Positions 4,256-64,000 of a stretch of 64,000 nt of DNA are shown here, one piece after another (the stretch's first letter is position 1; each line of letters begins with the position of its first letter). The stretch spans positions 2,684,535 through 2,748,534 of the forward strand of contig JAHRHZ010000054.1 of assembly GCA_024137785.1 (NCBI GenBank), given 5' to 3'. The stretch comes from Ginglymostoma cirratum (Eukaryota). The notes beneath the pieces were generated by a model. That model did no database searches, was not told the DNA's origin, and saw only the letters and a list, made by a program, of their open reading frames with translations. The position numbers and the translations under genes were made by a program.

Positions 4256-4354
4256 ACAGAAAGGTTTGAGAATTTATGGAATTTTCCACCCTATAGGATT
4301 GTGGATGTTCCATCAATGTGTATACTTAAGACTGAGATAGACAGATTTTAGTCT

Positions 4355-4639
4355 TCATAGAATCCCCACAGTGTGGAAACAGGTCATTTGGCCCAACAAG
4401 TCCACACCAACTCTGCAAAGAGCATCCCACCCAGACTCACCCCACCGCACCCTATCCCTGTAACCCTGCATTTCCCATGGCTACTCGACCTAAACTACAC
4501 ATCCCTGAATTCTATGGGCAATTTAGTATGACTAATCCACCTAACCATCACATCTTTAGACTGTGGGAGAAAATCAGAAGACCCGGAGAAAACTTCACAG
4601 AAACGGGGAGGATGTGCAAACTCCACACAGTCACCTGAG
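4355..4639 (-). mobile_element. HE1/V-SINE-like SINE, 5'-truncated
   Basis: CR1-type tail (catagaatccccacagtgtggaaacagg) and V-domain-like body (gggcaatttagtatgactaatccacctaacc...tgtgcaaactccacacag) shared with five other copies in the window. Confidence 0.85.
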
Positions 4640-12445: not shown

Positions 12446-13839
12446 AGCCTTCTAACTGGGAATGACCCTTTCATCTAACTTTGGTTGCAGTTGCTGCATA
12501 TTCTTGGTAAATTCTACAAAATAAGAAGACAAGTTTACTTCTTAATTACTTTCTTCAAGAAAATACTGTTCTCCTCAAAAGATGATAGCTAACTTTTCAG
12601 AAACAGAACCACTCAAATATAAAGGTACAATAAGATCCAATGTCTTGGTTCCCATAAAGGAATGACCAGAGCAGTCATTTCCTTCTCTGTGACGATATGC
12701 TGAAAAAGCAAATCAATATCCAGAATGCTCTCTGGTGGCTGATCACGCTTTCTTTGGCATCTTTTTTCCTCACTGTTTGCAGGCCTGTTTTCAGAGAATT
12801 GAAGAGTCTGCCTCTTGGATAATGCTATTGCTGTAGTATCTGTAATGGAATGTAATTCCTGGCACACTCAACCAATGTCAGCATCTTCAGTAACTGCTGA
12901 ACAATGAAAGCTTTTAGCAGCTCTGCTTAATAAAGAATTATAATGATTAGGAATAATACACAAAGGCTTTGTAAAGCTCTATTCCATTGTAGCAAAGTGT
13001 AACATGCATCTTGCCTTTCATACTGTCTTGTACTTCCCGAGCCCCATAGCTGAATGGAAGATGATCTGAGGATCATCCATTGGGGCAGCAACTGAAAGAA
13101 GTAACAGATCTGCTACTGAATCTAATTTAAAGTGAGCTTTCTTGCCATTTCCTATAATCTCGGCATACTGCAATCTGTCCCATTTGTCTATAATCAGGAG
13201 AATTGAAATCTTGCATTGGGTCTGCCACATTCCTAGGAAGTGTTCATCCTGCCCCTCCACATCCCCTGTTGCTGGATGCAGAACTAGGCAGTGTTTAAAC
13301 TTATGTGCTGCTGTTGCACTACCCAGTTATCTCTCTCTCTTTCTTTGGACTCGCAATCCTTTGTAAAATAGGTTGGATTTAGCTCCCGCTTGTGGGATTC
13401 CTTCATGGCATAGACCACAGCCCATTTCTTCATTCACTTACTATGTGTGTGTTTTGAGTCCTAATTTGTTCCCCATCCTTGTAGAGATCTTCTAGTTTCT
13501 GGAATGTTTTACTTACTGTGGCCTGTTTATTCCTTTCTGTTCCTAAACATATGATCAACAATGGCCCTTTCCCTTACTTTTTCAGCTTCTGTTTGGACTT
13601 TCCATTCAATGGTACAGTCCCTAGGTGAGTGATGGCTAATTTGTCCCGACTGCCACTGATTTTCTCTTCAAGGTTCAGATCACTGGTAAAACAGTCCTAC
13701 AGATACAGGCCGCAGTTCAGTGGGATTTTATGCCACTATGACACAAATCCTTTTGCACATGGTTATATTAGTCATATTTAGAGTATATTTATCAATATTC
13801 CACATCCCTGTTTTAGTCTAAACTCAGTTTTTTCTTCCC

Positions 13840-14430
13840 TCCTAGTCTAATTCCAGTTCTCTTCAGTTTTCTCATCTTAGCTCACTCTCCCTCAGTCTAA
13901 TTCCAACTTCCACTCTGTCTTATCCCAACTCTGTTCCTCAATCTCATTTCAGTTCTCTCCCTCAATCTAATCCCAGCTCTCTCCTTTAAACTAATTCCAG
14001 ATCCCACTCTGTGTAATCCCAACTCTGTCCCTCAATCTAATCCCAGCTCTTTCCTTCAATCTAATTCCAATTTCCACTCTGTCTAATCCCAGCTCTCTCC
14101 AGTCTAATTCCAGTTCCCACTCTGTCTAATTCTCAACTCTCTCCTTGAATCTAATTCTAGATCTCACTCTAATGCCCAGCTCTCTCTCCTTCAATCTAAT
14201 TCCAGCTCCCACTCTATCTAATCCTAGATCACTCCCTCAATCTAATCCCAGCTCTCTGATGCACAATCACTGCCTAATTCTCGATTACTTTTGAATCCAG
14301 CCCTGTAATTCTAGCTGCTTCTCTTTACTTCAGTCCGGATCTCTCCAACCCTCTGTTTAATTCCATACCTTTGCCTAATTTTAACACTCTGTTTAACTGA
14401 AATGTCCTGTGTCTGATTCCAGTTTTTTTT
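13840..14430. repeat. Tandem minisatellite of interspersed ~24-nt (TCTAATCCCAGCTCTCTCCCTCAA) and ~22-nt (TCTAATTCCAGxTCCCACTCTG) units
   Basis: Directly visible units from 13845 to 14258, decaying toward ~14430. Confidence 0.85.
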
Positions 14431-14883: not shown

Positions 14884-14969
14884 ATGCTGGATGGACACTG
14901 CTCTCTGGGATGGCAACTCTTCGTTGTTATAGTCTTTCTGACCATCGGCAACGCCACTGCCTATTTCGG
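14884..14969 (+). CDS. wnt9a: Wnt9a coding exon 1 (signal peptide), MLDGHCSLGWQLFVVIVFLTIGNATAYF-G; phase-2 donor GG|gtacgt
   Basis: Manual translation from ATG at 14884 (aaaATGC). MLDG...W...AYFG matches the vertebrate Wnt9a N-terminus with a hydrophobic core. 86 nt = 28 codons + GG, completed by the first T of exon 2. Too short for the ORF track. Confidence 0.93.
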
Positions 14970-21169: not shown

Positions 21170-21560
21170 GAAATGAGTTCAAGGACAAATCCAGGAGTTG
21201 AGCACATTATCCGGGCTACCACTTCTACGTATTAATGAAGAGATGCTGCACTATTGGAGATGGCATAGCTTTGGGGAAACATTAATCCAGGGTCTTGTCT
21301 GCCTCTGAATGGATGTCACACAGCAGGGAATTGTCATGACAAAGGCCACCATGCCTATTGCAACCAATGCCACCCAGAAGAAAGTAACTAGCTCTCAACT
21401 CATTCAGAGATAGTAAGAACTGTAAGAAGCTGGAGTCATAAGTGTGGAGCTGGAGGAACACAGCAGGCCAGGCAGCATCAGAGGAGCAGGAAAGCTGATT
21501 TTTCGGTTTGGGACACTTCATGGTTGATTATGGGATCTTGCTGTGTGCAATGCATCTAAC
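21170..21560 (+). mobile_element. Deu-domain SINE interrupted by a Penelope-derived arm (21407-21520)
   Basis: gagttcaagg...tgagcacattatccgggct...tgctgcactattggaga and tgggatcttgctgtgtgcaa flank gagatagtaagaactg...gctggaggaacacagcaggccaggcagcatcagaggagcaggaaagctga. Confidence 0.65.
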
Positions 21561-22690: not shown

Positions 22691-22984
22691 TCGTAGAATC
22701 AAATCTCCACAGTGTGGAAACAGGCCCTTCAGCCCAGCAAGTCTTCACTGACCCTCAGAGCATCCCACCCAGACCCATCCTGTATAACCCACCTATCTAC
22801 ACATCCTTGAACACTACAGGCAATTTAGCATGGCCAATCCACCTAGCCTGCACATCTTTGGACTGGGAGGAAACCCACACACAGGGAGAATGTGCAAACT
22901 CCACATAGCTGCCTGAGAGTGGAATTGAACCCTGGTGCCTGGTGCTGAGGCAGCAGTGCTAACCACTGAGCCACCATGCTGCCC
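22691..22984 (-). mobile_element. Near full-length HE1/V-SINE-like SINE
   Basis: Minus strand starts GGGCAGCATGGTGGCTCAGTGGTTAGCACTGCTGCCTC with A box TGGCTCAGTGG and B box GGTTCAATTCC; CR1-type tail. Confidence 0.9.
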
Positions 22985-25504
22985 ATCTTCTTGCCATACA
23001 GCCCGCTTCTGGCTAATTTCAGCTCAAATTCAGGATTGAGGCTTGAATCCCAAACCACTTTTTTCAGAATGGAGAAACGCCTCACTTTTAGCACATGTCA
23101 TACCCTCAGGTCATCCTGAAGGTCTTTCAAGTAATGGTGTGTTTCAGAAATTAAGTAACTATCCTAACGTAGGAAATACAACAACAAATTTGTGCTTAGA
23201 AAACAGCAATGCAATAAATGATTAGATATCTCTGGAAGAAGAATAGGTATCAGTTAAAACATCACAAAGGACTGGACTCTCTCTTATTTGAATTCTTATT
23301 ATGGGTTCTCGTCATCTACAGCGAGAGGACAGGTAGGGCCTTGCCATCTCTGACAGTGCAGCATTCCTTTGAAATGGAGTGTCAGTTTGGATGTTCTCAA
23401 ATTTTCAAAAGGAACTTACACCTGTAACTTCACTCTGAAGCAGGAATCTCACCAGTTGGCCCTGGCTGTTGTTGGACACTGCAAACCTGGAGTAGGGAAG
23501 GGAGCAGAGAAAAAAAATCAATGTTGCTGCTTCTCATCAGTGGCTCCTGCTAGAACATAAATTTGCAATTCCCTAAAAATGTTGGAACTCCCTATGTGTT
23601 GAGATATTTTACTTTATATAGAGGTCCTCAGTCCTCATTTTAATCTCTCCCCACTGCACCATTAATAGTACAGTCTCCTTCCAAATGGAATCAGACCAGG
23701 CTCGTGTGCTTATGACTTGAAGTGTGACTTGTATATATGATGCTTTGCAATAGGCAAGTGAGGCAGTTGGGTCTCTTGTCAAACCTCAACACACCATTAA
23801 ATACGATAGTCTAGGGTACATGAAAATAATTGTTACATTAATGGTGGGAAATCATCAAAAGGATGAATGGCTGAGTCACTGTTTCAGTGCTCCATCAAGG
23901 AGCAACACAAGGAATACAAGCTAATCATGTTGGTTATAATGTTAGCCTATCGCTAATAGATGTTCTCCACAACCCACAATGACTAGGAGTGTGGAGTCAC
24001 ACTTTTATTTTTCCACTTTACCCACCCACACTTAACATCAACATAACCTGACCAGTATTGGACACGGAGTAAATATATTCCCGTAATGTATCTTAGCCGC
24101 TTCAACACCACAGTCAATCTTCTGTACCAACCCATCTCATGATCTAGTCATCAACAAGATTTAGCAGCTATTAATTCTGTTATCCTGGCAGGTCTTGGAG
24201 ATTGTACCCTTGGTAGGATCTAGAAAGATTGTAAGAATTTAAGCTGTTAAGACAGTCTGGTGTCTGCTGTCACTTTTTTAACATCTTACTGATATAAGCA
24301 GACTAGTTACATGTATTAACCCTTCAATGCTGAATTATATTAAGAGGAAGTTGAATTGAAGAGCCAAAGACCAGTGTAAGACTTGAGCACCAAGAATGAA
24401 AACCACACTAGTGAAGGTTTAAGAGCTCTAGTTTCCAAAACCTGTATGTTCTCAAAGAAAACAGATCATCTGAGGTGATCTTCAGCAATAGCTTAGCATG
24501 GGCATTGGTAAATGAGTTATCCCCTATTTTTCATCTTAGTTTTCATTTTGTGAAACAAAGATTAATTTTACTTCCACCCCTCTTTCTTCCCTAAAGGACA
24601 TTAGTAAACCTACACGTTGTTTGACCAGTAACAAATCCAGTAAACATCCATACCATACTAATCCTATTGGAGTAAGTTGAATATGCACATTGCACAATAT
24701 GTTGGTTGAGATTTGTGGCTATCTGTCTTCCTCGTCATTTTAGATTATATGATGTAACGGATATCCCTCACTTCCTGTGTGGTGAAAACTTCACAGGGGT
24801 TGATCTGGAGGCAGTGACTAACCCAGAATGCATTGCAGATTGGCCACAAGTAGAATTTGCCAATTCTACTGACCTCAGTTAACAATGTTGGCATCTGTCT
24901 TTGTTCAGCCCACTAGCTTGTACTGGAAGCACAGCCAGTGGTGCCAAACCTCAATGTTTACATATAAGGGTAGGCTCACCAAGAAGTGCAAGCTGGTAAG
25001 CAGCTGCCACCCCGCCCCCAACCCCACCACAATCATCATGAAGAACTTTTAAGTTTTAGAATTTACCCAGAGGTCAGTTCCTCTCCCTTCAATCAGGTTG
25101 AAGGAGTTAGTTTCAATCTTCCAGTAAGCTAAATGGGAAAAGGCTCAAATCGATCTATTTCCCCCATTCTTCACTTCCCCCTCACTGATATAAAATTACC
25201 CTAAAGCTGGAGGCTTTACGGATTTCTGCCATTTGAAGTACTGTACACTACACTGAATGTAATACTGAAGTTGCCTTCCTATTAAAGAACCACCCTCACT
25301 GGGAGCTCACTTGAGAATTCCAGTGTACACTTTAATTTTAAGCAATCAACTGCCACTCCTTTTCCACCTTGCCAAAAAATTTGGCAGAACAGGATACAGT
25401 ATTCCAAATAGGTGGTAACCTTTTGGGCTGAGAGAAGAGCAACCATACTGCCTGAAGAGGATGCAGAAACATGAAGTTGTATGGACCACAATTAGAAAAT
25501 AAAC

Positions 25505-28240: not shown

Positions 28241-29090
28241 CCTCCTAATACCTGCCATTAGGAAAATGACTTCAAATTAAAGTAGAAAGAGTCAGGACTT
28301 TTTCTTGTTGGGCTACTTGACATTTGGTTCCTGACCCTCTTTTGAATCTACCTGACTGGTCATTTCCAAAACCCTAGTCTAAAATTGGAGGCTGCCCTTG
28401 ACATACTCTACCAGGACCCACTGAATGAAAGCTATCGCCTTACACTTGGCTGAGGCCTGCTGACAATTGGGCCAGGCTTTCTTTGTGTTTGTACTAAATG
28501 GCAAAGCAAGGACAATTTTTCAGGGTGAGCGGGCAAAGTGCAAAAAGGCAAGGTAATGCAAGACAGGGATTCTGCGAGTATCCAGGTAGGTTCATTGAGT
28601 GAGCACAATGACACAAGTGCAGAGCCTGGGGATTTAGCCCAGTCCACTCCTTGTCCTGGCTGAGTCCCTCAGTGCAGTTTATCCCAGCTGCAGCATTCCA
28701 GTGGTAGTTGCCCATGCAGAAGTCTCAGTGCCATGAGGGCTCCTAGTGCCTGGCACATTGCCAATAACTGTGGCCAAGCAGTGTGTTTGGTTAGTGCCCA
28801 TGGAACATGCTTTGGTATTTGTGCCTGGTGTCCAACACTGAGAGCATTCAGTACTAGCAGTCAGCCTGTGCTCTGCATGTATCCTGGCAAATGCCACAGA
28901 TACGTCAGACTGGAGAAATTGGCACCCCACTTTGCCAATGGGGATAAGATCTTGGGGTATGGGGTTAGTTGCATGCAGTCACTATCCATGGAGCATGCCC
29001 TAAAATCTTGGAACTTGGTGTCCAAGATGCTGCATGAGAGCCAGTGGCATGTCAGAGTCTGGCAGTCAACCATGTGTAGGTCTGGAGTTT

Positions 29091-29323
29091 CCACCTAACT
29101 TTCACATCCCTGGACACTATGGGCAATCAAGCATGGCCAATCCACCTACCCTCCACATCTTTGGATTGTGGGAGGAAACCAGATCACGCAGCAGAAACCT
29201 ATGCGGACGTGGGGAGAATGTACAAACTCCATACAGACAGTCACCTGAGGCTGGGGTTCTGGGATTGAACCCACGTCCCTGCTGCTGAGAGGCAGCAGCG
29301 CTAACCCCTTCGCCACCATACTG
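29091..29323 (-). mobile_element. HE1/V-SINE-like SINE lacking its tail
   Basis: gggcaatcaagcatggccaatccacc...tgtacaaactccatacagacagtcacctgaggc...gggattgaaccc...gctaacccct. Confidence 0.85.
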
Positions 29324-35450: not shown

Positions 35451-38400
35451 AACTGGTTCAGGAAGTGAAGTCATATTTAGTTGTAGGTTTATGACAGGTT
35501 TGTTGAAGTTGGTGGGGAAGGGTTATTGTTGGGGTAGGATAGGCAAGACTAGATGTGCTTATGATATCACTGAAGTCAATGTTTTAAATGTTCTTGAAAC
35601 AATAAATAACACTGATAGCTGAGGTCGACAGCACTGAAATAGGGCTTTTTTTTTGGCTGAGTCTGAGTTGCCATGGTTTTCTTAGGCAACAGTGGGGAGC
35701 TAGAGGAGAAACACTCTGACTCCAGCATCTGCAGTTCTTGCATCTCCGAAGTCTGTCTTAATTTTTTTTAGCCATGAGGCCTAGTGAGTTCTGCCCATGT
35801 CATGTGTCAGGGAGATATTAGTACCCCACTTTGTGGGGAGGGATCTAGAGATTCTGCTGGATAAAGTGACACAAGCAGGACTTCCCCTGCCCAGGACCAT
35901 GCCAAACTAGTCTGAGTTTGCCATCCAGGTTAGTCAGTGGCCTTCTAACAGCCCCCATGTGTGCCACCACTCATCTCTATCTCCCACTTAATCTGTATCT
36001 GCTACAGTTCCCACCTCCCACCAAGGCTCCTACTCTATTGATTTTTTTATTGTCTGCAATATCTCTTGCTGGCTCCAGCTCCAACCCCCTGGCAGAAGAC
36101 ATGCAGGGTTGATGGTGTCTACTGTCTCTCCTGGCACAACTCTGTACCTGCACCAACAGTAAAAACTGTGCCACCACTTTCAGCTTTCTCCTGAGGAAAA
36201 CTGGCCATAATAGGGCAGAGAGACTCCTGAGTCTGTCATTCAGCTCCTTACCTTTTTTGAGGAAGAATCCTGATTTATGACCACATCTAGCATGGCCTGG
36301 ACTAGTATCAAAGGCTTAGTTTGCTAGGAAACTAGGCAAAGGCTATCCTCCTCGACTGAGAGCCATTGACCACTGCTGAGCTTCCTGGTGTTGTCCGTAC
36401 TAGACAGCAAGGCAAAATCGGAGTTCTATGAGCCTTTTATTTCTGTCTGAGCAGGGAGAAGTGCAAAAGAGTACAGCAAAACAGAAATCCAGTGAGCTGA
36501 GCCTGGAGATGTATTTAGTTCAGATGGAACCAGGCTGTTTGTCCCAGAGTGCAGTGTCCATGCTACAGCATTACAATGATTGCCAGTGCGGCATTAAATC
36601 GTAGTGTCATCCTGAAAGTGGATCAAACGTGCCATGAGTGTTCTTGGAGCCTGGGGAATGCTCAACGCAGAGTGCATGGGGCCAATGCTAATGGAGTGTT
36701 GGTGCCTTGTGTCCAAGATGAAGGCCCTTGAGAGCATGTGGTGAGCCAAACCTGCCATGGCTTCCTCATTAATTTATTTTTTTCCTTTGACATCTATCTT
36801 TAGTAAGATGGAAGTCTGAATAGTAATGAGGTGGTGTGGCACTAACAAGGCACTTACCAATCAATGACCATCAGGTGACATCTCACAGGTGCCTAGCAAG
36901 AATCTCAACCATTTATGGAGTGACATGATCTCAATTTAGAAATGAGCCTGACCAAGCCTTGTTGTCCAATTCTGCCACACATCTTGCCAGAGGCCCCACA
37001 ACACACATTCCTCCATATTTTTTAAACTCAAAATACTGTACTTCTGGAAATTGGGGTCATACTGGATATATCCTGTCCTCTTTGTTGTTTCAGGGCCAAA
37101 TATTAGTAAACGTAGTACCTGTTCTTTGATGACTCTAGATTCCTCTTATTGTTATGCTCTTCATACATGAGAAGCTTAGGATGGTGTTGCACTGATGCTC
37201 TGTAGCTAAAGCAGTGTTGTAGCTTTAGGAGCACACACCCCACCAAGACTTCCTCCTACCCAGCCCCATGATCAAGCGCCGAGTGCTTTTGCTGAAGGAG
37301 ACCCTTCCTGGAAATTAGTAAGCAAACAATGGGGTTTGCTTATTGTGCTCCTGTTTGCTTCCTGCTGAGTTTATATTGGCAGCAGCAGGGAGTCTTTTTT
37401 GATTATATGGACATTCATTGCCCACTTAAGGGCCTCAACTTCCTTGGAATGGAAACGCCGACCACAAGGCTTGCAGCCATAGTCTTAATTGGGATGGAGG
37501 TGGGAAATACCAGTGTCCAACCATTGCTGTCCCTAACTAAAGGAATTCTGTCTGCCAGCAAACCTGTCTCAAAGCGAGGGTGCAAAATTCCACTCCAGTC
37601 ACAACTTAATATGGGGGCCCAATCCCAATTTGGCTTTCCAATTATCTGGCAGATGATTGGGCTAGACATTTGGCTAAGAGGCTCTATAGTGGTAATTCAG
37701 GTTTGCACCCATTACAGGATAACTCCTGGTCCAATGCAAAGCTGCTTAATGGGTGACAGCAGTCCACTTGACTCCTGACATTAAGTGCCTGAGTGTAATT
37801 CTGCGCATAACCCTGAGGGAAAAGTGAGTGTGGACAGAACCCCTACAGTGTTAGGGGTGAGAAAAATTCTCCATCTGTTTTCACGAGAGTGGAGACTATG
37901 CATAAACAGACGTTCAATTATCTTATCTTTACTTCCCCCTTTGTGGTTTCTGCCAAATTTTGTCTCTCGAAGCGAGTGGGAATCAGAATTTTCCTGAAAT
38001 TCCAGGTGAAAACTTTTTTGCACTTTGTTGCATATGTTGGAGAGTCATCACAAAGACAGGTGATTTTGGCCTAGCCCTGCACCTTTTTTTAAATTCACTT
38101 CTTGGTCTTCCTTTCTACCCTTCCTTCTGCTTTAGTCCTCCGTTCTAAGATGTCTTTCAACAAGAAGGGCTGTGCTGTGGAAACCTAAGCTGTTGCTGTG
38201 GATTCCACTTGGCAACTGCTCACTGCTGCATGTTTCAGATCAGCAGCTCCTCATGTCGGGAAGGCACAGAAGTGTCCATCACTCTGATACAGAAATCCCG
38301 GTAGTGTTCTCAAGAACAAGATATTTGCTTAGGTATTTAAGAACTTTGGATTTAAACCTTTGGTTTAGCCAGCCTTTTCTAATAAGTGCAGGATGTACAC

Positions 38401-38597
38401 TCTCTCTCAGACTAGAGGAGTTGACTTAGTTTGATTAGGTAATCTTTCTCCTCTTTTCTTTTTGCAACTTTATTTTTCTATCCAACTTCTGTTTTACAAA
38501 GCACTAATTAAACTGGGTAAAGGTTCACTGTACTATGTGAATGGGATGACCCATCCCATCCGGAGATATTACTAAGTAATCATGGAATGGCAGTAAT

Positions 38598-38923
38598 TCA
38601 TAGAATCCCTACAGGATGGAAGCAAGCCTTTGGCCCATCAAGTCCACACTGACCCTCCAAGCATGCCACTCAGATGTACCATCCCTGTAAACCTGTATTT
38701 CCCATGTCTAATCCACCTAGCCTGCACACCACAGGAAATTTAGTATAGCCAATCTACCTAACCTGCACATCTTCAGACTGTGGGAGGGAAACCAGAGCAA
38801 TGGAGGAAAACCCATGCAGACACAAGGAGAATGTGCAACTCCACACAGCTGCCTGAGGGTGGAATTGAACATAGGCCCCTGGCTCTGAGGCAGCATGCTA
38901 ACCACTGAACCAAAATGCAGCCC
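38598..38923 (-). mobile_element. HE1/V-SINE-like SINE
   Basis: catagaatccctacag...ggaaatttagtatagccaatctacctaacctgcacatc...ggaattgaac...gctaaccactgaac. Confidence 0.85.
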
Positions 38924-39294
38924 CTCACTTATTCCCATTTCTCATGCTGTGAATACCCTTTGAGTATGGAGTATGATATTGGGACTGCCATGGAACATTT
39001 TACTTTTGTCTAACATTGTTGTCCAACTATTCAATCACCTGACCTCAAATGATTGGTTCCAACACTTTGTATCTGAAATGAAAACTAATCCATTTTGTAG
39101 CACTAACCTCCATATCTTAACAAATAGAATCTTTTACCCACCTTGCCTAAGTCATTTTTTGGTATTTGTGTATGAGTAATGAATGAGATTCCAAACTTGC
39201 TTTTAATTATGTTTCAAAGATTTTTTCCATGACCTTTGGGAAGCATCATTGAAAATATTGGCATAAACTAGGAAGAACTCTTGGAAAAGATGAA

Positions 39295-41966: not shown

Positions 41967-42226
41967 TTTAACTGGTAATGAACCACTCACCATCTTGCCT
42001 CTGACTCAAGAAACGGGACAGACACACGGGAAGGCCCACTTCAAGGTCTGTGACCGTCTGAAGCTGGAGCGGAAACAACGGCGAATGTGCCGTCGGGACC
42101 CTGGAGTGGCAGAGACCCTCATGGAAGCAATCAGCATGAGCGCCCTTGAGTGTCAGTACCAGTTCAGGTTTGAGAGGTGGAACTGCACCCTGGAGGGACG
42201 GTACAGGACAAGCCTTCTGAGGAGAG
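41967..42226 (+). CDS. wnt9a: Wnt9a coding exon 2 ([15 protein letters not shown]...[24 protein letters not shown]...[27 protein letters not shown])
   Basis: Long polypyrimidine tract plus cacag acceptor at 41962-41966; donor G|gtcagt at 42227; 260 nt keeps frame. [24 protein letters not shown] is diagnostic of Wnt9a rather than Wnt9b. Overlaps ORF 41995..42303. Confidence 0.97.
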
Positions 42227-47479: not shown

Positions 47480-47815
47480 GGTGGCTCAGTGGTTAGCACT
47501 GTTGCTTCAGTGCCAGGGATCCAGGTTCAATCCAACCCTCTGGCAACTGCCTGTGTGGAGTCTGCACATTCTCCCTGTGTCTGTTCATTTCCTCTGGGTG
47601 CTCTGTTTCCCCTCAGTCCAAAGATGTACAGGTTAGGTGGATTGGCAATGCTAAATTACCCATAGTGTCCAGGGATATACAGGCTAGGTGGATTACCCAT
47701 GGGGAATGCAGGGTTACAGGGATAGGGTGGGGGACAGATTTAGGTGGAATGCTGCTTGGGGGCTTGGTGTGGACTTGATGGGCTCAAAGACCTGCCTCTA
47801 CACTGGAGATTCTAT
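47480..47815 (+). mobile_element. HE1/V-SINE-like SINE (sense orientation in wnt9a intron 2)
   Basis: ggtggctcagtggttagcactgttgcttcagtgccagggatccaggttcaatcc (A and B boxes)...ggtggattggcaatgctaaattaccc...gagattctata. Confidence 0.9.
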
Positions 47816-50800: not shown

Positions 50801-53455
50801 TTGAAGCAGTTGGCCGGCCTTGAGTCTCTTTGACCCACTGCTGCAGAACTGTCACCGTTCTTTGGTGGCATCTTGCCTCTTAGATTCAACCCAAGTGGAA
50901 AATGTTAACTCGATAGTTAATCAGCTGGCCTTTGTGCTCGCTTTACTGTTGGTCTCCTGAGCCTGGTTGACTTTTTCACTTTTCCGAATCAGGTAAGTAC
51001 TGTGAGAGGATGGGGTGAGTTTGGAGTTTGTTGGTTAGGTTAATGTCACTGCCATACAGCATAGACTCCTTCCATACAGCCGGATGGGTGTATGGGAGGG
51101 GGGGAAAATTAATGTGGAGAGCTGCGTGCTGATAGTTCCCAATGTAGCTGTCCTGCTGGGGGAGGTTTCCCCAGTGGTGGGACTAGACATGAATTGGTGA
51201 TCCATTGAATGGAAGTGGGCAGGCAATTATAAAACCAAAAAGACACTATTGAAGAAAATTTGGCTAGGCCACCAATTCACTCAGTGGTGAAGAATCCCCA
51301 CATACCGAATGGGAGGATATCTATTCAATGTGACCGTCCAAGGAGATTGGAGCTGGAAGCCAACACTACCACCACCCCCCCCGCCACCCAAGCATATCAT
51401 GGATGCTTATGAATGTTCCCATCCCCAACCGACAACCAATAAAATACCTATCCTACAATCCATTAGATTGGCTAAGGCATTAAATGTAAACTCTTTGCCT
51501 TCCTCAATTTCCCTGTACCCTAGCCAAGCAACCCTAGAATCCAAGGCCGTGCCTATGCCAGGAGGAATCATCTGTGGCTCAATGGGAGTGCTGTTGGCTC
51601 TTGATTTCTGGAAGATCCAAAATCCATTCCTGGGCCCTAAGGGTATCAAATTTCATTTTATTTCTTTCAACATTACAATGTAAGATCTGACGTTGAGATG
51701 TCAGCTGTAGAGTATTATTTGGGAATTAATGATCTTCCCTGCTGTCTACCGTAAAAGACCTGCCACTGAGACCAAAGATATTTGTTGCCAGATGGAAGTT
51801 AATTATTCCCTTTTATGGAAGGAGCTGCAACAGAAATATACAATTGCACAGATGGATTTGAACATTGGTCCCTGTTTATTTGGAGCGTATTAGAGGAATT
51901 AATGGATTAAAAAGTCATCCAGTTCCTTCTATTCACTGCTAACGGTCTGGTATTAACATGATAATGGAACTGTTGGCTAATCTTAGCAATCAATCTCTAA
52001 ATTACTCCAAAACAGACCCAGACGTGGCATGTGGAAAACCTTTGTGGGTCCTATAGGTTCAAAGTCACTTGTTTCTTATATGAATGCTCTACTGACTACG
52101 TTATGCAGTAAATTACTCAATGTATTGCAAAATGTTTTTTTCTGAAGGAAAAACATCAACTCAATTGTTCACTTGAGTTTCTGATGGCCATTTAGTACTT
52201 GCTGCAGCGCAGACCGAATTTGCACATTGGAACTTTGAAGTCAGGGAAGTTGAAGATTCCTATGGGCAATTTCCCCTACCCCTGGAGCCCTCAAAGTACG
52301 CATTTTAAATTGGGGAATTCAGAAGGTTCCACTGCAATTAAGTGAATAGTTACTGAGAAAAAGTTTGACAATTTAAATACCAAGTCTAACTTCTGGGTGA
52401 CTATTACGCTGACCACACACCACCTCCCCGAACTCCGCCGCACCCCCCCCCCCCCCCCCCCCGGCCAAACAAAAAATTACTACACCCCCTCAATTACATA
52501 AAGCCCAGACTCATTACACTCTCTCTGTCCCAACACCCCATACCCAGAACCTCCATACTCCCTTGCTTGAGACAACACCTAGCATCCCATCCCTACCACA
52601 ACTGCTGAGCAACGTATTCCCCAACCTACTCTGAACACTTAATCACTTGTCAGTGCCCTAACCACTTGACACTCTAACCTTGCACACACTTGGCCTTTCG
52701 CAGGAGCTATAAATGCAGCTGTTTATGCTGCTGGATATTTAAATCACCAGAATGCTGCAACTACAACAGTGAAAAATGGGATGTCATTTGCCTTCTCTTC
52801 TCTTTTCCCCCATCCGTCCAGCCCAACAACAATCTTTGTATAAGAATACAGTTCGATTGGTGGGACAATGTGTTTTTTGTTTGCAAAATGTGTAATTGGA
52901 ATCTCCTGCCGGAAATGTGGAGCTTATTTTTGGTGCAGTAATAAAGGAGCAGAGTAGCAATCTGTCTGACTGCTCCACTCCTTAGAAAATCTGGCCCATA
53001 GATCGTACCCAGGAGTTGATTATTGAGATACACCTGAGGTGGACCATAACAGAAGAAAGTGGATTGTCAACATTAAAAGGACTGATGTGTTGGCACCCCA
53101 ATTTTTGAAAAGGCTGTCAGATGGTGGCCAACCTGTGCCCTGTGGGATTCCACCACCAGCATTTTTCATTGGGTAAAGCCTGTATCTGGTTCTGTTCAGC
53201 ATCTTCCCTGAGAGCTGAGCTGAGACCTATAGCATTATACATGTGGGAATCTGCAACATTTAACAACTTTAATGTACAAAGCAGCCCATGTCATCACGTG
53301 GGCTGCATTAACTAGTGCTGCCTTCATTGTCAACCTCGGGATATTAAGATTCCTCTGGCAGTATAGCTGCTATTGTGGTGTAGAATATCTAGCTGTCAGG
53401 CAGGAACTGACAGCTAAAAGTCCCTCAAAGCAACCAGGTAATCTGTTTTGGTGAT

Positions 53456-54090
53456 AACAAGGTGTGGGGCTGGATGAACACAGCAGGCCAAGCAGCATCA
53501 TAGGAGCAGGAAAGCTTGACGTTTCGGGCCTAGACCCTTCATCATTTCTGANNNNNNNNNNNNNNNNNNNNNNNNNNNNNNNNNNNNNNNNNNNNNNNNN
53601 NNNNNNNNNNNNNNNNNNNNNNNNNNNNNNNNNNNNNNNNNNNNNNNNNNNNNNNNNNNNNNNNNNNNNNNNNNNNNNNNNNNNNNNNNNNNNNNNNNNN
53701 NNNNNNNNNNNNNNNNNNNNNNNNNNNNNNNNNNNNNNNNNNNNNNNNNNNNNNNNNNNNNNNNNNNNNNNNNNNNNNNNNNNNNNNNNNNNNNNNNNNN
53801 NNNNNNNNNNNNNNNNNNNNNNNNNNNNNNNNNNNNNNNNNNNNNNNNNNNNNNNNNNNNNNNNNNNNNNNNNNNNNNNNNNNNNNNNNNNNNNNNNNNN
53901 NNNNNNNNNNNNNNNNNNNNNNNNNNNNNNNNNNNNNNNNNNNNNNNNNNNCCTTCATCAGAAATGATGAAGGGTCTAGGCCCGAAACGTCAAGCTTTCC
54001 TGCTCCTATGATGCTGCTTGGCCTGCTGTGTTCATCCAGCCCCATACCTTGTTATCTCGGATTCTCCAGCATCTGCAGTACCTTTTTATC
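53456..54090. mobile_element. Young palindromic Penelope-derived insertion spanning the assembly gap, 14-bp TSD, inside a minus-strand Deu-SINE
   Basis: 53453-53551 is almost the exact reverse complement of 53958-54056. TCTGTTTTGGTGAT occurs at 53442-53455 and 54091-54104. Confidence 0.85.
53552..53951. other. Assembly gap (400 N)
   Basis: Run of N. Confidence 1.
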
Positions 54091-54525
54091 TCTGTTTTGG
54101 TGATGTTGGTTGATGGATAAGGAAAGTTAGTTTTCCTTTGGCATAGACTCAATAGTCTGGGCCCTTTTTAACTGTAATTCTCTACAACCCTAAGAATTGG
54201 CCAAAACATTGGGTAAACTCCCCTTCGTTAAAATATTTCCACAGAATCCTTCACATGAAGGTATCTGAAAGTTAACACTTCCATCAGTGCAGCTCTTGTT
54301 CCGTGATGTACTGGATTGTCAGCCTTCTTCCTCCTGCTTTGAAATCGAGACTTGCAACACAATTTGAAACCAGCCTCTTCGCCTGTCCTCCTTCCTGCCT
54401 TTAAATCTCTGGCCTTTAAACCCTATGACTGAACCAAAAATTCTGGATGACAAGCAAAAATCTATCATTGCTTTAAAACCTCGACCCACATTTCATGAGT
54501 TCATTGATTTCTGTTTCTCTTGCAG

Positions 54526-54791
54526 GTTTTAAAGAAACTGCCTTCCTATATGCCATCTCTTCTGCTGGATTGACCCATGCCCTTGCCAAGGCTTGCAGCG
54601 CTGGACGAATGGAGCGATGTACCTGTGATGAAGCTCCTGACTTGGAAAACCGGGAAGCTTGGCAGTGGGGAGGCTGTGGTGACAATCTCAAGTACAGCAA
54701 CAAGTTTGTCAAAGAGTTTATGGGGCAAAAGAAATCCAACAAAGATTTACGAGCGCGCGTAGATCTGCACAACACCAACGTTGGTGTCAAG
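54526..54791 (+). CDS. wnt9a: Wnt9a coding exon 3 ([54 protein letters not shown]...[10 protein letters not shown])
   Basis: Acceptor ttctcttgcag| at 54525; phase-0 donor AAG|gtgagt at 54792. Canonical Wnt motifs KETAF, Cx[12 protein letters not shown]. Overlaps ORF 54495..54809. Confidence 0.97.
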
Positions 54792-57489
54792 GTGAGTGAT
54801 CGTCAGTGACCAAGTTGATTTTACTTTTAAAGGGTAATTAAATCAGTATTGTTGTTTGTATCAGTTTGTAGTCATCTTGACTCCAGGGCTTGAGCGAATC
54901 AGCTAGGCTAATATTTCATGCTTAAGGAAACAAATGACCCTGTTCCTGTTCCTATATTCCTTGACACATTTTCTAAGAGTTTGTCTGCACATGCAGTGAA
55001 ATGAGATAATTCCAGGGCTCAGTCTGAAGCCGCAAAAGAACTGCTCCATGAAGGTGCATTTTCCAAGACTTAAATATTTCTGATGTCCATAGTACATACA
55101 TGGTGAATGATGACCTTGTACATTCAGCCTACTTCTGACAACATTTCACAGCCGCAGAGTGCAAAAGAATGCCCGTCCTAGCACTTCAAGGATTTAAGAT
55201 GAAACTTCCCAACACACTATTCACTGGGAATTTGGGAAGTGGGAAGTATTCCTCACCAGTCTAGCTGTAGCCAAATCAACTAAAGTTTCAGCTGTTCAAA
55301 AAGAACTACAACCAGCTTATGGATGGGAAGTAAATGCCGGCCTTGCTAACATCGGCCACATCTCAAACAACAATAATTGCTAAAATGAGTTACTTTAGAA
55401 ACACATGAAAATAAATGCTAGCAGCAACATTCCGCAAACAGTAATCAGGCAAATTTTGAAGAAGCCATTTGCCCTTTGTTTGAGGGAGGAACATTTGCTG
55501 AGACATTAGTAGAACATTCTTCTTCTTTGGTGTCAAGCGATTGTTAAGCTCTATCTAATGCCTCACCCCGCACGACTTGAAAATGTTTAAAGCTTATCAC
55601 TGCAACACTAAAGTGCCTGCCTGGTTCTGATTTGTGATTTGAATTGACGATATTTTCACTCTGGAGGGAAGCCTTCTCCCAATTGACCCCTTTCCTACTT
55701 GTTTCTGATTTGACAATTATGACCCAATTAAAGGGCACAATTGCCATAGCAGATCTTTTTTATTGTCACACTCTAATGTGCCAGAGGAATTAGAAGGTCT
55801 TGTTCACCATTACCCGAAGGGTGGTAAGTTACACATGGCTGTTTTAGCAGTGATTTCGTGTGTAACCAATGGGGTTCTTTGTCAATGAGTTGAGTTGCAC
55901 CATCACATCAGATTGGGGAAAAAAAATAAACTGCCAAATGCTTTCTAGGAAGGTTTTCTTAAAGGCTAACTCCATCTTTAATCAATGGGTGCATGGCCAC
56001 TCCTGGATTTCGATATCACCATCGGACTCTGCAACATGCAGCTGACTTTAATAAAACCCAAGAGTTGCCAAGCTATTTGCCTTTGTAGTAGAGAGAACCT
56101 AATACAGCTTTTAAGTTTGTTTTTTGATGCTAATGTGGGGCTTGTAACGAGACCAATCTAATGTAGAAATACATACAGTTAGGCAGGGGGTGAAAAAAAC
56201 AGAGGGAATGCTTCCAGCTCCCAGTTTGGGAACAAACTACTCTAAGGAATTCATACTAATGTTGTAGGTTCTTTTATTACAACCCCAGCCTTCAGACATG
56301 CAGTTTCCATTCCATTCCTGTGTATTATGTAGACCACCTGTCTAAACTTCTGCAGCCCCTTGTGCTAGAAACCATACAGTTCAATTTCACTCCTTCCTCC
56401 CCTTTTTGTACCAAGCCATCAGCACTGACAGCAACAGGTCAGATATAGTGATACAGGACATGGTGGGGGCAGGTGGTGGTGATGATGAATTTGTGCAAAG
56501 GGTGGGATTTCTCCCACTAAAGTCTTCATGAAGAAGCTGAAGAGCTGTAGGGCTACACAAGGGAAAATTCAGGGTCTAAACCAGTTTGCACTGTCCCATC
56601 ATATCCTACTTTTTTTTCTAAAAGGAGTCTCTCCAAAACTATCCGCTTGTATGGCCACCTCCCATGTTAACACAGCACAAAGCTGTGATTGTTGTTGCCG
56701 CCTAATGGATGAAATCTTTCTAAGGTGGACCCAACCTTCCAAGCATCAACATTGCGTAGTCACAGTGAACGACGTGTGGCTTAGACACTGTAGAGGATTG
56801 CTTGACAGCTGCCTAAAACATGCCTTGCCCTGACCCACCTCACTAATTATAAATACCACTAAGGGCCATAATGCTGTGGTGATAGGCCACCTGCGAAGGT
56901 CTGCACCCTTGTGTCAACAGCTCAATAGTAGCACGCAACAAAACAATTTCTTGCCATTGTTTCATCCAGCACATACAATGGGTACAGCACCTTTCATCCT
57001 ACACCAAATCTGGGTACAATCCAGCTTCCAACCCACCTCTCCTACTCTCAAGACTGAAACTAATTGAAAGACGCATCAATATGGATTACTACCAACCCGC
57101 TAGACAGCTAATGGTGTGTGAATTGTAAACTGACACGTAAAGGTTGGTTAGCAAACAACTCCATTACTTGCAAAATCCTGCAACTACCAGGAGGTAAGAG
57201 GGAATCTAGATGGCTGGTGATCAGTGTTTCATCGAACAATTCCTGTTCCAATTTACATGTGTCATAGCACACTCTGGTGTGTGTATATACTTAAAAACAA
57301 TGTCAGCAACTCAACTGGGTTTCTTGGGTTGGGAGTTGGGCTTTTACGTTCACCTGTTGCTTTTCCAGTTTCCTGTTGTGACAGAGCTTAAATGGTCTCT
57401 GGTCATGCCTGTTAAAATCCATTCATCTTTGTGGCTTTGACAGTGACAGACCTGTTGTCTCTTGGCAGCAGAATGAAAAGCTAGCAATA

Positions 57490-60760: not shown

Positions 60761-63545
60761 TCATAAACCATAAGATATAGGAGTGAAACTATGCCATTCG
60801 GTCCATCATCTCTGCTTTGCCATTCAGTCATGGCTAATATGTTTCTCAACCCTATTGCCCTGCATTCTCCCCACAATCCTTGATTTCCCCCTTACCAATC
60901 TGAAACCTATCTGTCTTAAATATACTCAATGACTTGACTTCTCCAGCTCTCTGTGGCAATTAATCCCACAGATTTGTCACCCTCTGGCTGAAGATATTCC
61001 TCCTTGTCTGAGTTCAAAAGCGTCATCCCTTCACTGTGAGTCTGTGCCTTTGGCTCCTACTAGTAGAGACATCTTCTCCACATCCACTTTACCCAGACCT
61101 TTCTTTATTCTATACATTTCTATCAGATCCTCCCTTCAACCTTGACTCCAAGAACAGACCTTTTGACTCCTGAACAGATCCTCATATGACAGGCCCTTCA
61201 CCCTGGGATCATTCTTGTAAACCTTCTCTGGACCCACTCCAAAGCCAGCGTGTTCTTTTCTTAGATATGAGGCCCAAATGCGGTCTGACCGGCATGTCAT
61301 ACAACCTCAGCAGGACATCTCTGCTCTTGTACTCTAGCCCTCTTGAAATGAATGGCAACATTGCATTTGCCTTACTAATTGTGCAGGCTCAGTCAGCATT
61401 CTTAAGAGAATCCTGAACTAGGACTTCCAAGTCCATTTGCACTTCAGACTTCCAAAGCCATTCCCTGTTTAGAAAATAGTCTATGCCTCCATCCTATGTA
61501 CTAAAGTATATAACCTAATACTTTCCCACTTGTATTTCATCTGCCACTACTTTGCCCACTTGCCTAACATGCCCAAGTCCTTCTGCTGCCTTCCTGCTTC
61601 CTCAACACTACTTGCCCCTCCAACTACCTTTTGTGTCATCTGTAAACATGATGACAATGCCCTCTGTTCCTTCATCCAGATCGTTAATGCATCATGTGAA
61701 TAGTTGTGGTTCCAACACTGACCCCTGTGGAATTCCACTAGTCACCGTCTACCATTTGAAAAGGACCGTTTATCCCTACTCTCTGCCTTGTGCCAGTCAG
61801 CCAATCCTCTAGCTGTGTCAGTACTTGCCCCTAACACCAGAGTTCTTATCTCACCTGTGCAGCACCATATCATAGACCTCCTGGAAATCACATACACTGG
61901 CTCTCCTTTCATCTACATTGCTCATTCTGTCCTCAAAGAATTCTAATAGATTTGTCAGGTGTGACTGCCCCTTGATGAGGCCGTCCTGACTCTGCCCTAT
62001 TTTCCTAGTATTCCGCAATCTCATCCTTAATAATGGACTCCGATATCACCAATGGCCAAGGTCAGGGTAACCGGCCTATCGTTTCCTGTCTTCTGCCTCC
62101 CTCCCTCCTTAAATAAGGGTGTTACATTAGCATTTTCCAGTCCTCTGGGACCCTCCCCTGACTCTAGTGAAAGATCACCACTAATGCCTCAACCATCTCC
62201 TCCGATTATTCCCTTCAGAACTCTGAGGTGTAGCCCATCTAGTTGGTTGATTTATCCACCTTCAGACCTTTCAGCATCGCCAGCACTTTCTCCTTACAGA
62301 AGGCCAATAGCCCTGCCCCCTGACTCTTTAAGTTCTGATCTGCTATAGGCATTTTCCACCATGAAGACTGGTACAAAGTACTTATTCAGTTCCTCTGCCA
62401 TTTCTTTGGTCCCTAATTAGTACTTCGCCACCCTCATTTTCCAGCAGTCCAAAGTTCTCCCGCTTTTTTTTTTGATATCTTTAAACTCTTGCAATCTTCT
62501 TTCTTATTGGCTAGCTTACTCTTATTTCACTTGCTTTCCCCCATTGTAGTTATCCTCTGGTTCTTAATTCTTTGGCTTTTTCTTTTGCTTTTGTGCTGTC
62601 CCTGACTTGTGGTCAGCCATGGTTACCATGTGGCCCAGAATCCACAGTATTTTGCCCTTGGCTTGTTGCACGATCCTTCATTTTGCCTTCCTTCCCTTAG
62701 TATGTTTTCCCTACTATGGGATTAAGTTCTTCTGCACCTCCCAAATTACCGTCCAACTCCTGCCATTCCTGCTCCAGTGTCTTCCCTGCTAGGCACCCCT
62801 TCCAATCAACTCTGACCAGCTCCTGCCTTATGTCTTTGTAGTTACGTTTACTCAATTGTAATACTATTGCATCTGATCCCAGTGTCTCCCTATCAAACTG
62901 CAGGGTGAATTCAATCATATCATTAGTCATTGCCACCTAGAAGTTCCTTCACCCTACGCTCCCCTGTCAAGTCTGCCTCATTACACTACACATCACCAAA
63001 TCCAGAACTATCTGTTCCCTAGTGGACTCTACCACAAAATCATAGAAGTTCTACAGTGTGGAAACAGGCACTTCAGCCCAACAAGTCCCTATTGACCCTC
63101 AGCCTCCCACCCAGACCCATTTCCCCATGACCCACCTAATCTGCGCATCCCTGAATGCTGCAGGCAATTTAGCTTGGCCAATCCACCTACCTTGCACATC
63201 TTTGGACTGTGGAAGGAAACCCACACAGACACGGGGAGAATGTAGAAACCCCACAGTGTCCTGAGGGTGGAATTGAGCCCGAGTCCCTGGTGCTGTGAGG
63301 CAGCAGGGCTACCCACTGAGCCACCGTGCTGCCCTGATGCTCAAAAAAAATTGTAGACATTACACAAACTCCTTTTCTTGATCAGCTACCAACCTGATTT
63401 TTCCCAGTCCACTTACACATTGAAGCCCCCTATGATAAATGTAATGGTGCCTTTCTTGTATGCCTGTTTTATCTCCTGACTTACTTTCTATTCCACATGT
63501 TGACCACTGCACTGAGACCTGTCCACAATTCTCACCAGGATTTTT
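60761..63545 (-). mobile_element. Long decayed CR1 LINE (ORF2 endonuclease through 3' tail)
   Basis: Tail cataaaccataagatataggag; minus-strand RT motifs (GIPQGSVLEPQLF, FTDDTK, YRPVTL) and the ETLGS...KRNYKDIRQELVRVDW region (ORF 62697..62936). Confidence 0.9.
63040..63334 (-). mobile_element. HE1/V-SINE-like SINE inserted in the CR1
   Basis: Minus strand starts GGGCAGCACGGTGGCTCAGTGGGTAGC; tail catagaagttctacagtgtggaaacagg. Confidence 0.9.
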
Positions 63546-63621
63546 TTCTGTGCTGATCAGATTTCCTTCCCACACAACCTGGTAATCCCCCACTTTAAGA
63601 AATGATAAGACAATTTCCCAA

Positions 63622-63792
63622 GAGATAATAGGAACTGCAGATGCTAGAGAATCTGAGATAACAAGGTGTAGAGCTGGACGAACACAGCAGGCCAAGCACC
63701 CTGATGAAGGGTCTAGGCCCGAAACATCAAGATTTCCTGCTCCTCTGCTGCTTGGTCTGCTGTGTTCATCCAGCTCTACACCTTGTTATCTC
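63622..63792. mobile_element. 171-bp fold-back Penelope-derived insertion with 14-bp TSD
   Basis: AGACAATTTCCCAA at 63608-63621 and 63793-63806; 47-bp inverted arms 63652-63698 / 63749-63795 with 2 mismatches. Confidence 0.88.
63701..63728 (+). ncRNA. Minimal hammerhead-ribozyme-like core (CUGAUGA-A-GGGU-CUAG-GCCC-GAAAC-AUC)
   Basis: Conserved CUGANGA and GAAA boxes around a short stem II. The sister copy at 53964-53991 keeps the palindromic GAAACGUC of dimeric PLE hammerheads; this copy has a CpG-type G>A change. Confidence 0.55.
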
Positions 63793-64000
63793 AGACAATT
63801 TCCCAAAGTAGTTTTTGACTTTTTTTTTTGGGTTGAGGTAGCAATCTTTTTTTTTTTCAGTCTCCTATGATCTTTTGCTACAGTTCCAAAGAAGGATCAT
63901 TATTGAATTTGGAACATTAACTCTGTTTCTTCATGAATGCTACCAGACCACTTGAATTTCTCCAGCATTTTCTGTTTTTGTGTCTGAGGCCCAGAATCCA

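Follow-up and report, generated by a model that had tools for sequence, protein, structure and literature searches.

An inverted pair of hammerhead-bearing Penelope-like element ends in a Wnt intron of Ginglymostoma cirratum, and the junction footprints of its family

The insertion at 53442..54104 of the 64,000-nucleotide stretch of Ginglymostoma cirratum DNA analysed here (the window) is most likely a head-to-head pair of copies of the hammerhead-bearing pseudo-LTR (pLTR) of an abundant EN+ Penelope-like element (PLE), one arm of which carries a 34-nt tail, flanked by a 14-bp TSD. An RT/GIY-YIG protein is likely to have primed both strands of a staggered cut on uncut RNA, both copies running off a fixed 5' end just upstream of CUGAUGA. 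This reading starts from the identity of the arms with the pLTR of an element encoding RT and GIY-YIG, from two 3' ends, from a rule of one tail per inverted pair, from a pile-up of 5' ends at −7..0 (counted from C3 of the hammerhead core) and from the lack of ends at the ribozyme cut. The insertion is an ordinary, very short PLE-end insertion of a known kind. The only new part is the set of family-level footprints (the 5' boundary by CUGAUGA, no ends at the cut and the one-tail rule), and these junction statistics provide a modest lead on the PLE mechanism.

The 14-bp TSD is an exact direct repeat (53442-53455 = 54091-54104), and the two arms (53453-53551 and 53958-54056) are identical at 98 of 99 positions, in agreement with the near-perfect inverted arms of ~100 bp described in the first-pass annotation of this DNA. 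The motif TGATGA-A-GGGTCTAGGCCC-GAAACGTC was found at 53965-53991 on the plus strand, together with a mirror copy in the other arm, and the minus strand at 53952-53964 reads as had been annotated. With one mismatch in 99 between the arms and a perfect TSD, the window copy ranks among the young ones, and the earlier description of a young retro-insertion with a TSD, forming a long hairpin inside a Wnt intron, holds (Table 1). The insert ends at 53453-53455 and 54091-54094 share 3–4 nt with the continuation of the template, which hints at short target-template pairing at priming.

Table 1. Features of the insertion and of the adjacent Wnt exon. Positions are those of the window.
Feature	Position	Strand	Remarks
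Left TSD, 14 bp	53442..53455	+	Last 3 nt also match the proximal 3' end of the element
Inverted tail-less arm, spanning the pLTR from core U4 as far as its proximal 3' end (roughly +90 to +92, counted from C3)	53456..53544	-	98/99 identical with the right arm; 3' ends in the family have a peak at +92..+94
End of the left contig: the 4-nt loop, seen in one orientation, and 3 nt from the opposite stem	53545..53551	+	
400-N run, most likely an assembly placeholder with a true length near or below zero	53552..53951	.	
Right contig start: stem-end repeat and loop in the other orientation; the minus strand shows an intact CUGAUGA	53952..53964	+	
Minimal type I hammerhead, U4 to C17	53965..53991	+	Descriptor from PMC4209133
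Remaining pLTR to the proximal 3' end	53992..54056	+	
One-sided 34-nt tail, unmirrored in the left arm	54057..54090	+	Family distal 3' ends peak at +127..+130
Right TSD	54091..54104	+	First 4 nt are the next template bases past the tail
Host Wnt exon	54526..54793	+	PF00110

Other repeats were observed in the window. A second copy of the family at 63608-63806 is older and gapless, with a 14-bp TSD; its inverted tailed arm is truncated near +50, and its sense tail-less arm starts at an intact C3 and has its palindromic CG decayed to CA. An older pLTR remnant on the minus strand (21410-21520) and a tail-only fragment (35718-35750) are also present, as is another dispersed repeat of ~300 bp, SINE-like and 66–82% alike (4354-4639, 22702-22997, 29090-29323, 38595-38938, 47480-47815, and 63037-63334). 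Low-complexity tandem repeats occupy 13833-14257, upstream of the putative first Wnt exon.

The locus had been annotated as a 663-nt insertion. The insertion stood but its length did not, as an N run that had gone unmentioned accounts for 400 of the 663 bases. This run (53552-53951) is the only one in the 64-kb window. The left contig runs through the hairpin loop and stops three bases into the opposite stem; the right contig starts nine bases ahead of that loop. The 4-nt loop is shown in opposite orientations by the two contig ends. Since both ends traverse the same hairpin tip, the 663-bp span is not a measured length. Over all fetched loci, internal N runs came in only four sizes (9 of 10 N, 7 of 100, 67 distinct of 400, and 1 of 3000). 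A 400-N run occurs in 13 of the 30 best family loci, the window locus included, and a gap lies within 130 nt in 21 of 30 exact-centre loci. An element word was found at most 30 nt from 53 of the 67 runs of 400 N, in loci that were picked for the element and have no control, and at 10 of these 67 distinct runs the contig ends overlap directly by 11–28 nt. Gapless siblings with both arms near full length measure about 190–256 bp. In raw RNA reads, spacer-less opposite-strand joints of the window type were detected (1431/1435 on L129; 21 reads with 20 starts), which come from other loci; the reads of four runs that could be placed on the window locus were repeat-derived only, and the unique intron flanks were covered by neither read nor contig. 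Structures of this kind in PLEs break short-read assemblies according to Craig et al. (PMC8557442), and palindromes like these leave fixed-size gaps in such assemblies.

Taken as overlapping at this locus, the contig ends give an insert of 89 + 4 + 126 = 219 bp, and it is very probable that the N run hides no real DNA and that the insert measures about 219 bp. It is improbable that the run conceals about 400 bp of real DNA, in the form of longer inverted 3' UTR arms, within an insert of near 635 bp. The assembly does write 400, and long inverted pairs are known at L022, L118, and L178; however, the same hairpin tip is traversed by both contig ends, and 400 is a fixed gap size that was also written at the 10 runs with overlapping ends.

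As annotated, the motif fits the minimal PLE class of hammerheads, both in the window and in 220 family cores. The window hammerhead has an extra A, a 4-bp helix II with a 4-nt loop, GAAA, and a palindromic ACGU, with a predicted cut after 53991; the extra A and the palindromic CG are also present in the family cores. Among the 220 cores, the helix II pairs are kept in 208–220, with one-sided G-U/A-U changes only and no double-sided covariation, while the palindromic 15.2/16.2 is CG in 162, the remainder being mostly CpG decay. Of helix I, for which the class descriptor has 4–5 bp, only about three pairs are well kept (213, 203, and 173 of 220). An Rfam scan of 52500-55500 returned two chance matches and no hammerhead at E ≤ 10, and the folding of single arms was no better than that of shuffles (z −0.04 to −1.45).

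On its own sense strand, each arm as assembled reads A-UGAUGA, with A in place of the core C3. The intact CUGAUGA box is seen only on reading back across the loop, and the state of C3 depends on the loop orientation; at most one arm can have an intact C3. The 92-bp duplex between the arms was computed at −197.7 kcal/mol, and the core is predicted to be either C3-less or sequestered by arm pairing. Because of the head-to-head layout, a transcript would contain one sense hammerhead without a dimer partner in cis, and minimal PLE hammerheads are described in PMC4209133 as inactive as monomers and weak as dimers. With a single sense motif, possibly C3-less, lying within a 92-bp duplex, cleavage in the Wnt pre-mRNA is unlikely, and we consider it highly likely that the ribozyme is silent there. 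No genomic 5' ends or RNA read ends were found at the hammerhead cut.

The host is a Wnt gene on the plus strand (Pfam PF00110, E 6e-28). In agreement with the distance of ~435 nt to exon 3 given previously, the Wnt exon starts at 54526, 435 nt past the element end at 54090, which makes it the third exon provided that two Wnt-like pieces further upstream, near 14960 and at 42050-42226, represent exons 1 and 2. The exon, which is presumably Wnt9a-like, is joined without intron sequence in one transcript contig (X15 record 8, 270 nt, 0 differences). The insertion probably has no consequence for the Wnt gene, given normal splicing of the exon in the single transcript contig observed and a ribozyme predicted to be dead or paired up.

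The autonomous PLE expected to carry this pseudo-LTR was found in the genome, with RT and GIY-YIG ORFs linked to the same pLTR; the first-pass annotation had named the lack of any linked PLE ORF, together with a lack of cleavage of consensus dimers, as grounds for rejecting its proposal, and such an ORF is thus present. At locus L021, the pLTR is joined to a broken ORF with an RT thumb, a cysteine linker, and GIY-YIG, of which the thumb and linker fragments (two of four proteins) were unmatched in Pfam. Several of the 20 long copies fetched have open frames of 700–781 aa, and both ORFs that were submitted (702 and 781 aa) match RVT_1 and GIY-YIG; a PDB search with the 781-aa ORF returned only two weak, unrelated Pex matches (E about 0.009). 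The family ORFs contain DKG, RYIDD, and GxAMG motifs, and the Cx4CxxC linker CNRRKCYTC lies between RT and EN at position 630 of the L195 ORF and 551 of the L194 ORF. The N-terminal part of the ORF is a Thr/Ala/Pro-rich repeat region of variable length (L206 3755-4000, L195 4267-4330). The hammerhead core begins 259–260 nt past the stop of the RT and GIY-YIG ORF in four of five copies checked, the fifth having a variant core, and the window arm matches the 3' ends of these elements at about 92–97%. At the family level, a single ORF (RT with a C-terminal GIY-YIG) is therefore tied to the pLTR, the window copy itself being without an ORF. The element is the pLTR of an autonomous PLE, probably of Neptune type, a placement made on the linker. 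A CX2-5CxxC linker is common to Neptune and Nematis (PMC8557442).

The genome-wide copy count that had been proposed gave 14,994 exact matches for a 32-nt core word and 37,167 for a 26-nt word from the 3' part of the pLTR (reversed controls, 0 in both cases), and 8,069 for a word of the younger variant. Partial-tandem pseudo-LTRs, in which the 3' UTR end is followed by the ORF start, were found at L129, L212, and L219. In tandem copies the tail continues into the 5' UTR and the ORF start, and copies primed further downstream run from the tail through a short UTR to the ORF start (eight exact matches).

The insertion had been assigned to a small non-autonomous family, and this assignment has to be given up: insertion sizes in the family grade continuously from about 60 bp up to >2 kb, of which copies such as that of the window are the shortest class, i.e., 5'-truncated insertions of the autonomous element. 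A distinct ribozyme-driven family, retrozyme-like or a MITE-like palindrome, copied as a unit from a palindromic master, would account for the many copies near-equal in size and centre (146 exact centres), and retrozymes are reported as pLTR-derived in 10.64898/2026.07.22.740005. However, centres differ between copies (loops of 3–5 A, fillers, deletions), arm lengths run as a continuum into the ORF, and the intact core may lie in either arm (6 versus 3 of nine gapless insertions); in addition, head-to-tail pLTR arrays are absent from the sampled loci, as are ends at the cut site. This explanation is largely refuted and, in our opinion, very improbable. The non-LTR retrozyme was also rejected as a classification, the insert being a head-to-head pair and not a head-to-tail unit, and one contig joint in the RNA data that "goes back 41" is not evidence for a small circular RNA. 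As for the inversion point, placed at the CUGAUGA box in the first reading of the sequence, it is a real hot spot of the family, but the exact centre seen here has 146 exact matches versus about 15,000 for the core.

To map the junctions of the family, arms were picked by an anchor located 67 nt downstream of C3, and the sampling is thus unbiased for the 5' junction. One hundred arms on contig C1 and 100 arms of the younger variant on contigs C1–C3 were taken, with all listed places used; both samples are restricted to contigs C1–C3 and include partner arms of the same insertion, and the 39 of 200 arms cut by assembly gaps were censored. Among the 124 arms that reach C3, 61 have their 5' end at −7..0 (31/59 and 30/65 in the two samples), the mode being −3, followed by −4. 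This corresponds to 82 ends per 1000 nt at risk, versus 1–2 upstream and 4.5 downstream, or about 50-fold the upstream rate; outside the hot spot, the counts were 15 ends over 8,909 nt upstream and 52 ends over 11,579 nt downstream. The hot spot was observed in both kinds of arm (tailed, 26/56; tail-less, 35/68), and the hammerhead cut (+27..+30) is the end point of none of 174 arms. Over the 20 nt upstream of the hot-spot ends, the sequence is unlike the parent element (mean 30%, maximum 55%), and what lies upstream of the 61 hot-spot arms is an inverted arm in 18 cases, the TSD in 15, and other sequence in 28. Four to five T precede C3 in 17 of the 61 hot-spot arms versus 0 of 52 read-through arms, as expected for run-off additions.

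A second 5' hot spot at the cut had been suspected from read joints 1463-1466 and a first alignment, and it disappeared with a better reference (the same 0/174 arms); 2,984 loose read ends at 1463 belong to an older subfamily that has an indel. The idea that the copies share a spliced 5' exon upstream of the hot spot was rejected as well, a common upstream sequence and an AG acceptor being both absent. The tailed arm of inverted pairs often stops at +44..+50 (L040, L127, L250, L258, L281, L285, and L299), a possible second preferred junction. Tandem jumps from the hot spot into the ORF start of another copy were seen at L212, L219, and L306, and these loci belong, with L213, L216, and L218, to composite copies in which the pLTR is joined directly to another copy's ORF start, apparently through template jumps, with many exact joints from the hot spot.

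The 3' ends of the arms form two peaks, at +92..+94 and +127..+130, and TSDs in the family run from 8 to 18 bp. Of the 54 inverted insertions whose TSD measures 8 bp or more, a few of which may be chance pairings (e.g., L115 and L243, with 16 and 14 mismatches), 52 have one tail, two have none, and none has two, where one tail was expected in 50%. By hand count, 12 of 32 gapless pairs have at least 5 nt in each arm that the other arm lacks. The arms differ on average by 4.6% within insertions and by 8.2% between insertions. The variable site +31 agrees in 32 of 33 pairs and other sites in 43, 35, and 38 of 47, an agreement that gene conversion between arms, or the activity of one subfamily at a time, could also explain; at +81/+82, one in five pairs disagree.

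According to PMC11167929, both target strands are cut and extended in PLEs, reverse transcription starts at two internal sites bounding the tail, and hammerhead cleavage is not required. In the mechanism that we propose, the protein would bind an uncut RNA on the pLTR at its front, and one target strand would be primed at the proximal site and the other at the distal site. The cDNAs would extend for about 95 and 130 nt until they reach a fixed end just 5' of the core; the joining of their 3' ends would then delete C3 from one arm. Read-through arms, extending into the UTR or ORF, would arise where a long RNA is primed in its 3' pLTR. We somewhat favor the view that both arms derive from one RNA by such twin priming from the two RT start sites, the cDNA ends being joined by 1–2 nt microhomology. 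In vitro, Frangieh et al. found the RT start to be alike on both strands, and this alone does not predict the one-tail rule.

An unlikely alternative source of the arms is self-priming, in which one cDNA (or antisense RNA) would fold back on the junction palindrome and serve as its own template, a route proposed for one strand by Arkhipova et al. 2013 (PMC3846280). The cDNA end at this junction can close a 2-bp stem over a GAAA loop, its arms are 98/99 identical, and the tailed arm is the intact one in six of nine gapless exact centres, as snap-back allows; in the three others, however, the C3-less arm bears a tail that the other arm lacks. The mutually absent sequence in 12 of 32 gapless pairs excludes the snap-back of one cDNA for those pairs, and the 15 of 61 hot-spot arms that abut the TSD with no inverted arm indicate that the stop is independent of fold-back. 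Self-priming fits some centres, but not the pairs with mutually exclusive sequence. Turning to the 5' hot spot, we lean slightly towards the RNA's own 5' end, probably a start site, as the cause of the pile-up. A stall of the RT, at the edge of the folded hammerhead or in the C-rich tract just upstream, seems rather unlikely, although this tract starts 5 nt upstream of C3, roughly half of the arms are of the read-through kind, and no read starts were seen at the hot spot. The stop precedes the copying of the C tract, the extra T's and the jumps to a second RNA are typical of run-off, and the read-through arms are accounted for by long RNAs primed within their 3' pLTR. Moreover, an initiator-like CCATTTC sits exactly at the hot spot. 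In the RNA reads, no pile-up of starts was seen at −4 or elsewhere, but the library looked unstranded and 93% of placed reads ran into the host, and these reads are therefore unfit to test the start site.

Put together, these elements suggest a tentative scheme, to which we give somewhat less than an even chance, in which the element RNA starts 3–4 nt upstream of the hammerhead core, so that the ribozyme caps the transcript's 5' end and is uncut before copying, and a protein dimer uses the two RT start sites of a single RNA to prime both target strands. An RNA start at the hammerhead edge combined with twin priming would produce inverted pLTRs, one-sided tails, and thousands of 100–250-bp stubs.

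Most of this architecture is already described for PLEs. Inverted 5'-truncated pLTRs, TSDs of 8–10 bp or more, a 30–40-nt tail at one end only, a palindrome at the inverted junction, a pLTR and tail running into the ORF start, and assembly breaks are shared with EN+ PLEs (Pen2a_Av of Adineta vaga, PMC3846280; the scheme of PMC8557442; Penelope of D. virilis, PMC2377424), whereas here only two pLTR ends are inserted, TSDs are of 8–18 bp, and the junction clusters at the hammerhead 5' edge. The RT followed by a Cx4CxxC linker, with GIY-YIG at the C terminus, the DKG motif, and a hammerhead near the 3' end are those of the Neptune clade (PMC8557442); in contrast to that clade, no microsatellite targeting is evident in the TSD-flanked copies. 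Poseidon of Anolis (PAc, PMC11167929) likewise has two RT start sites bounding the tail, an unprocessed RNA template, and no reads ending at the cut, but its ORF starts inside the hammerhead instead of about 45 nt after the tail, and short target-template matches (3 and 4 nt) flank the insert studied here. The core boxes, the extra nucleotide after A9, G10.1-C11.1, and the palindromic 15.2/16.2 are found in metazoan PLE minimal hammerheads, which occur singly or, as here, as opposite-strand pairs 100–700 bp apart (PMC4209133); compared with the Schistosoma examples, both helices are shorter, helix II measuring just 4 bp and helix I about 3 bp. Non-LTR retrozymes are also non-coding, hammerhead-bearing, and PLE-related (PMC7229834; 10.64898/2026.07.22.740005), but they form head-to-tail arrays with a hammerhead per unit (also PMC6155905), whereas the present insert is head-to-head with one sense motif per strand. 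A search of the openly accessible literature returned no paper on this family or on a 5' boundary fixed at the edge of the hammerhead, which is weak evidence of absence, and the supplements of PMC4209133 and 10.64898/2026.07.22.740005 may list the motif of the family.

The family constitutes a large natural data set on an unsolved step of PLE biology, i.e., the origin of inverted pLTRs and one-sided tails and the purpose of the hammerhead. The sharp 5' boundary, the lack of cut-site ends, and the one-tail rule yield predictions that the existing in vitro PLE system could test directly. If the proposed scheme is true, genomic junctions would resolve both the start site and the geometry of insertion to the single base.
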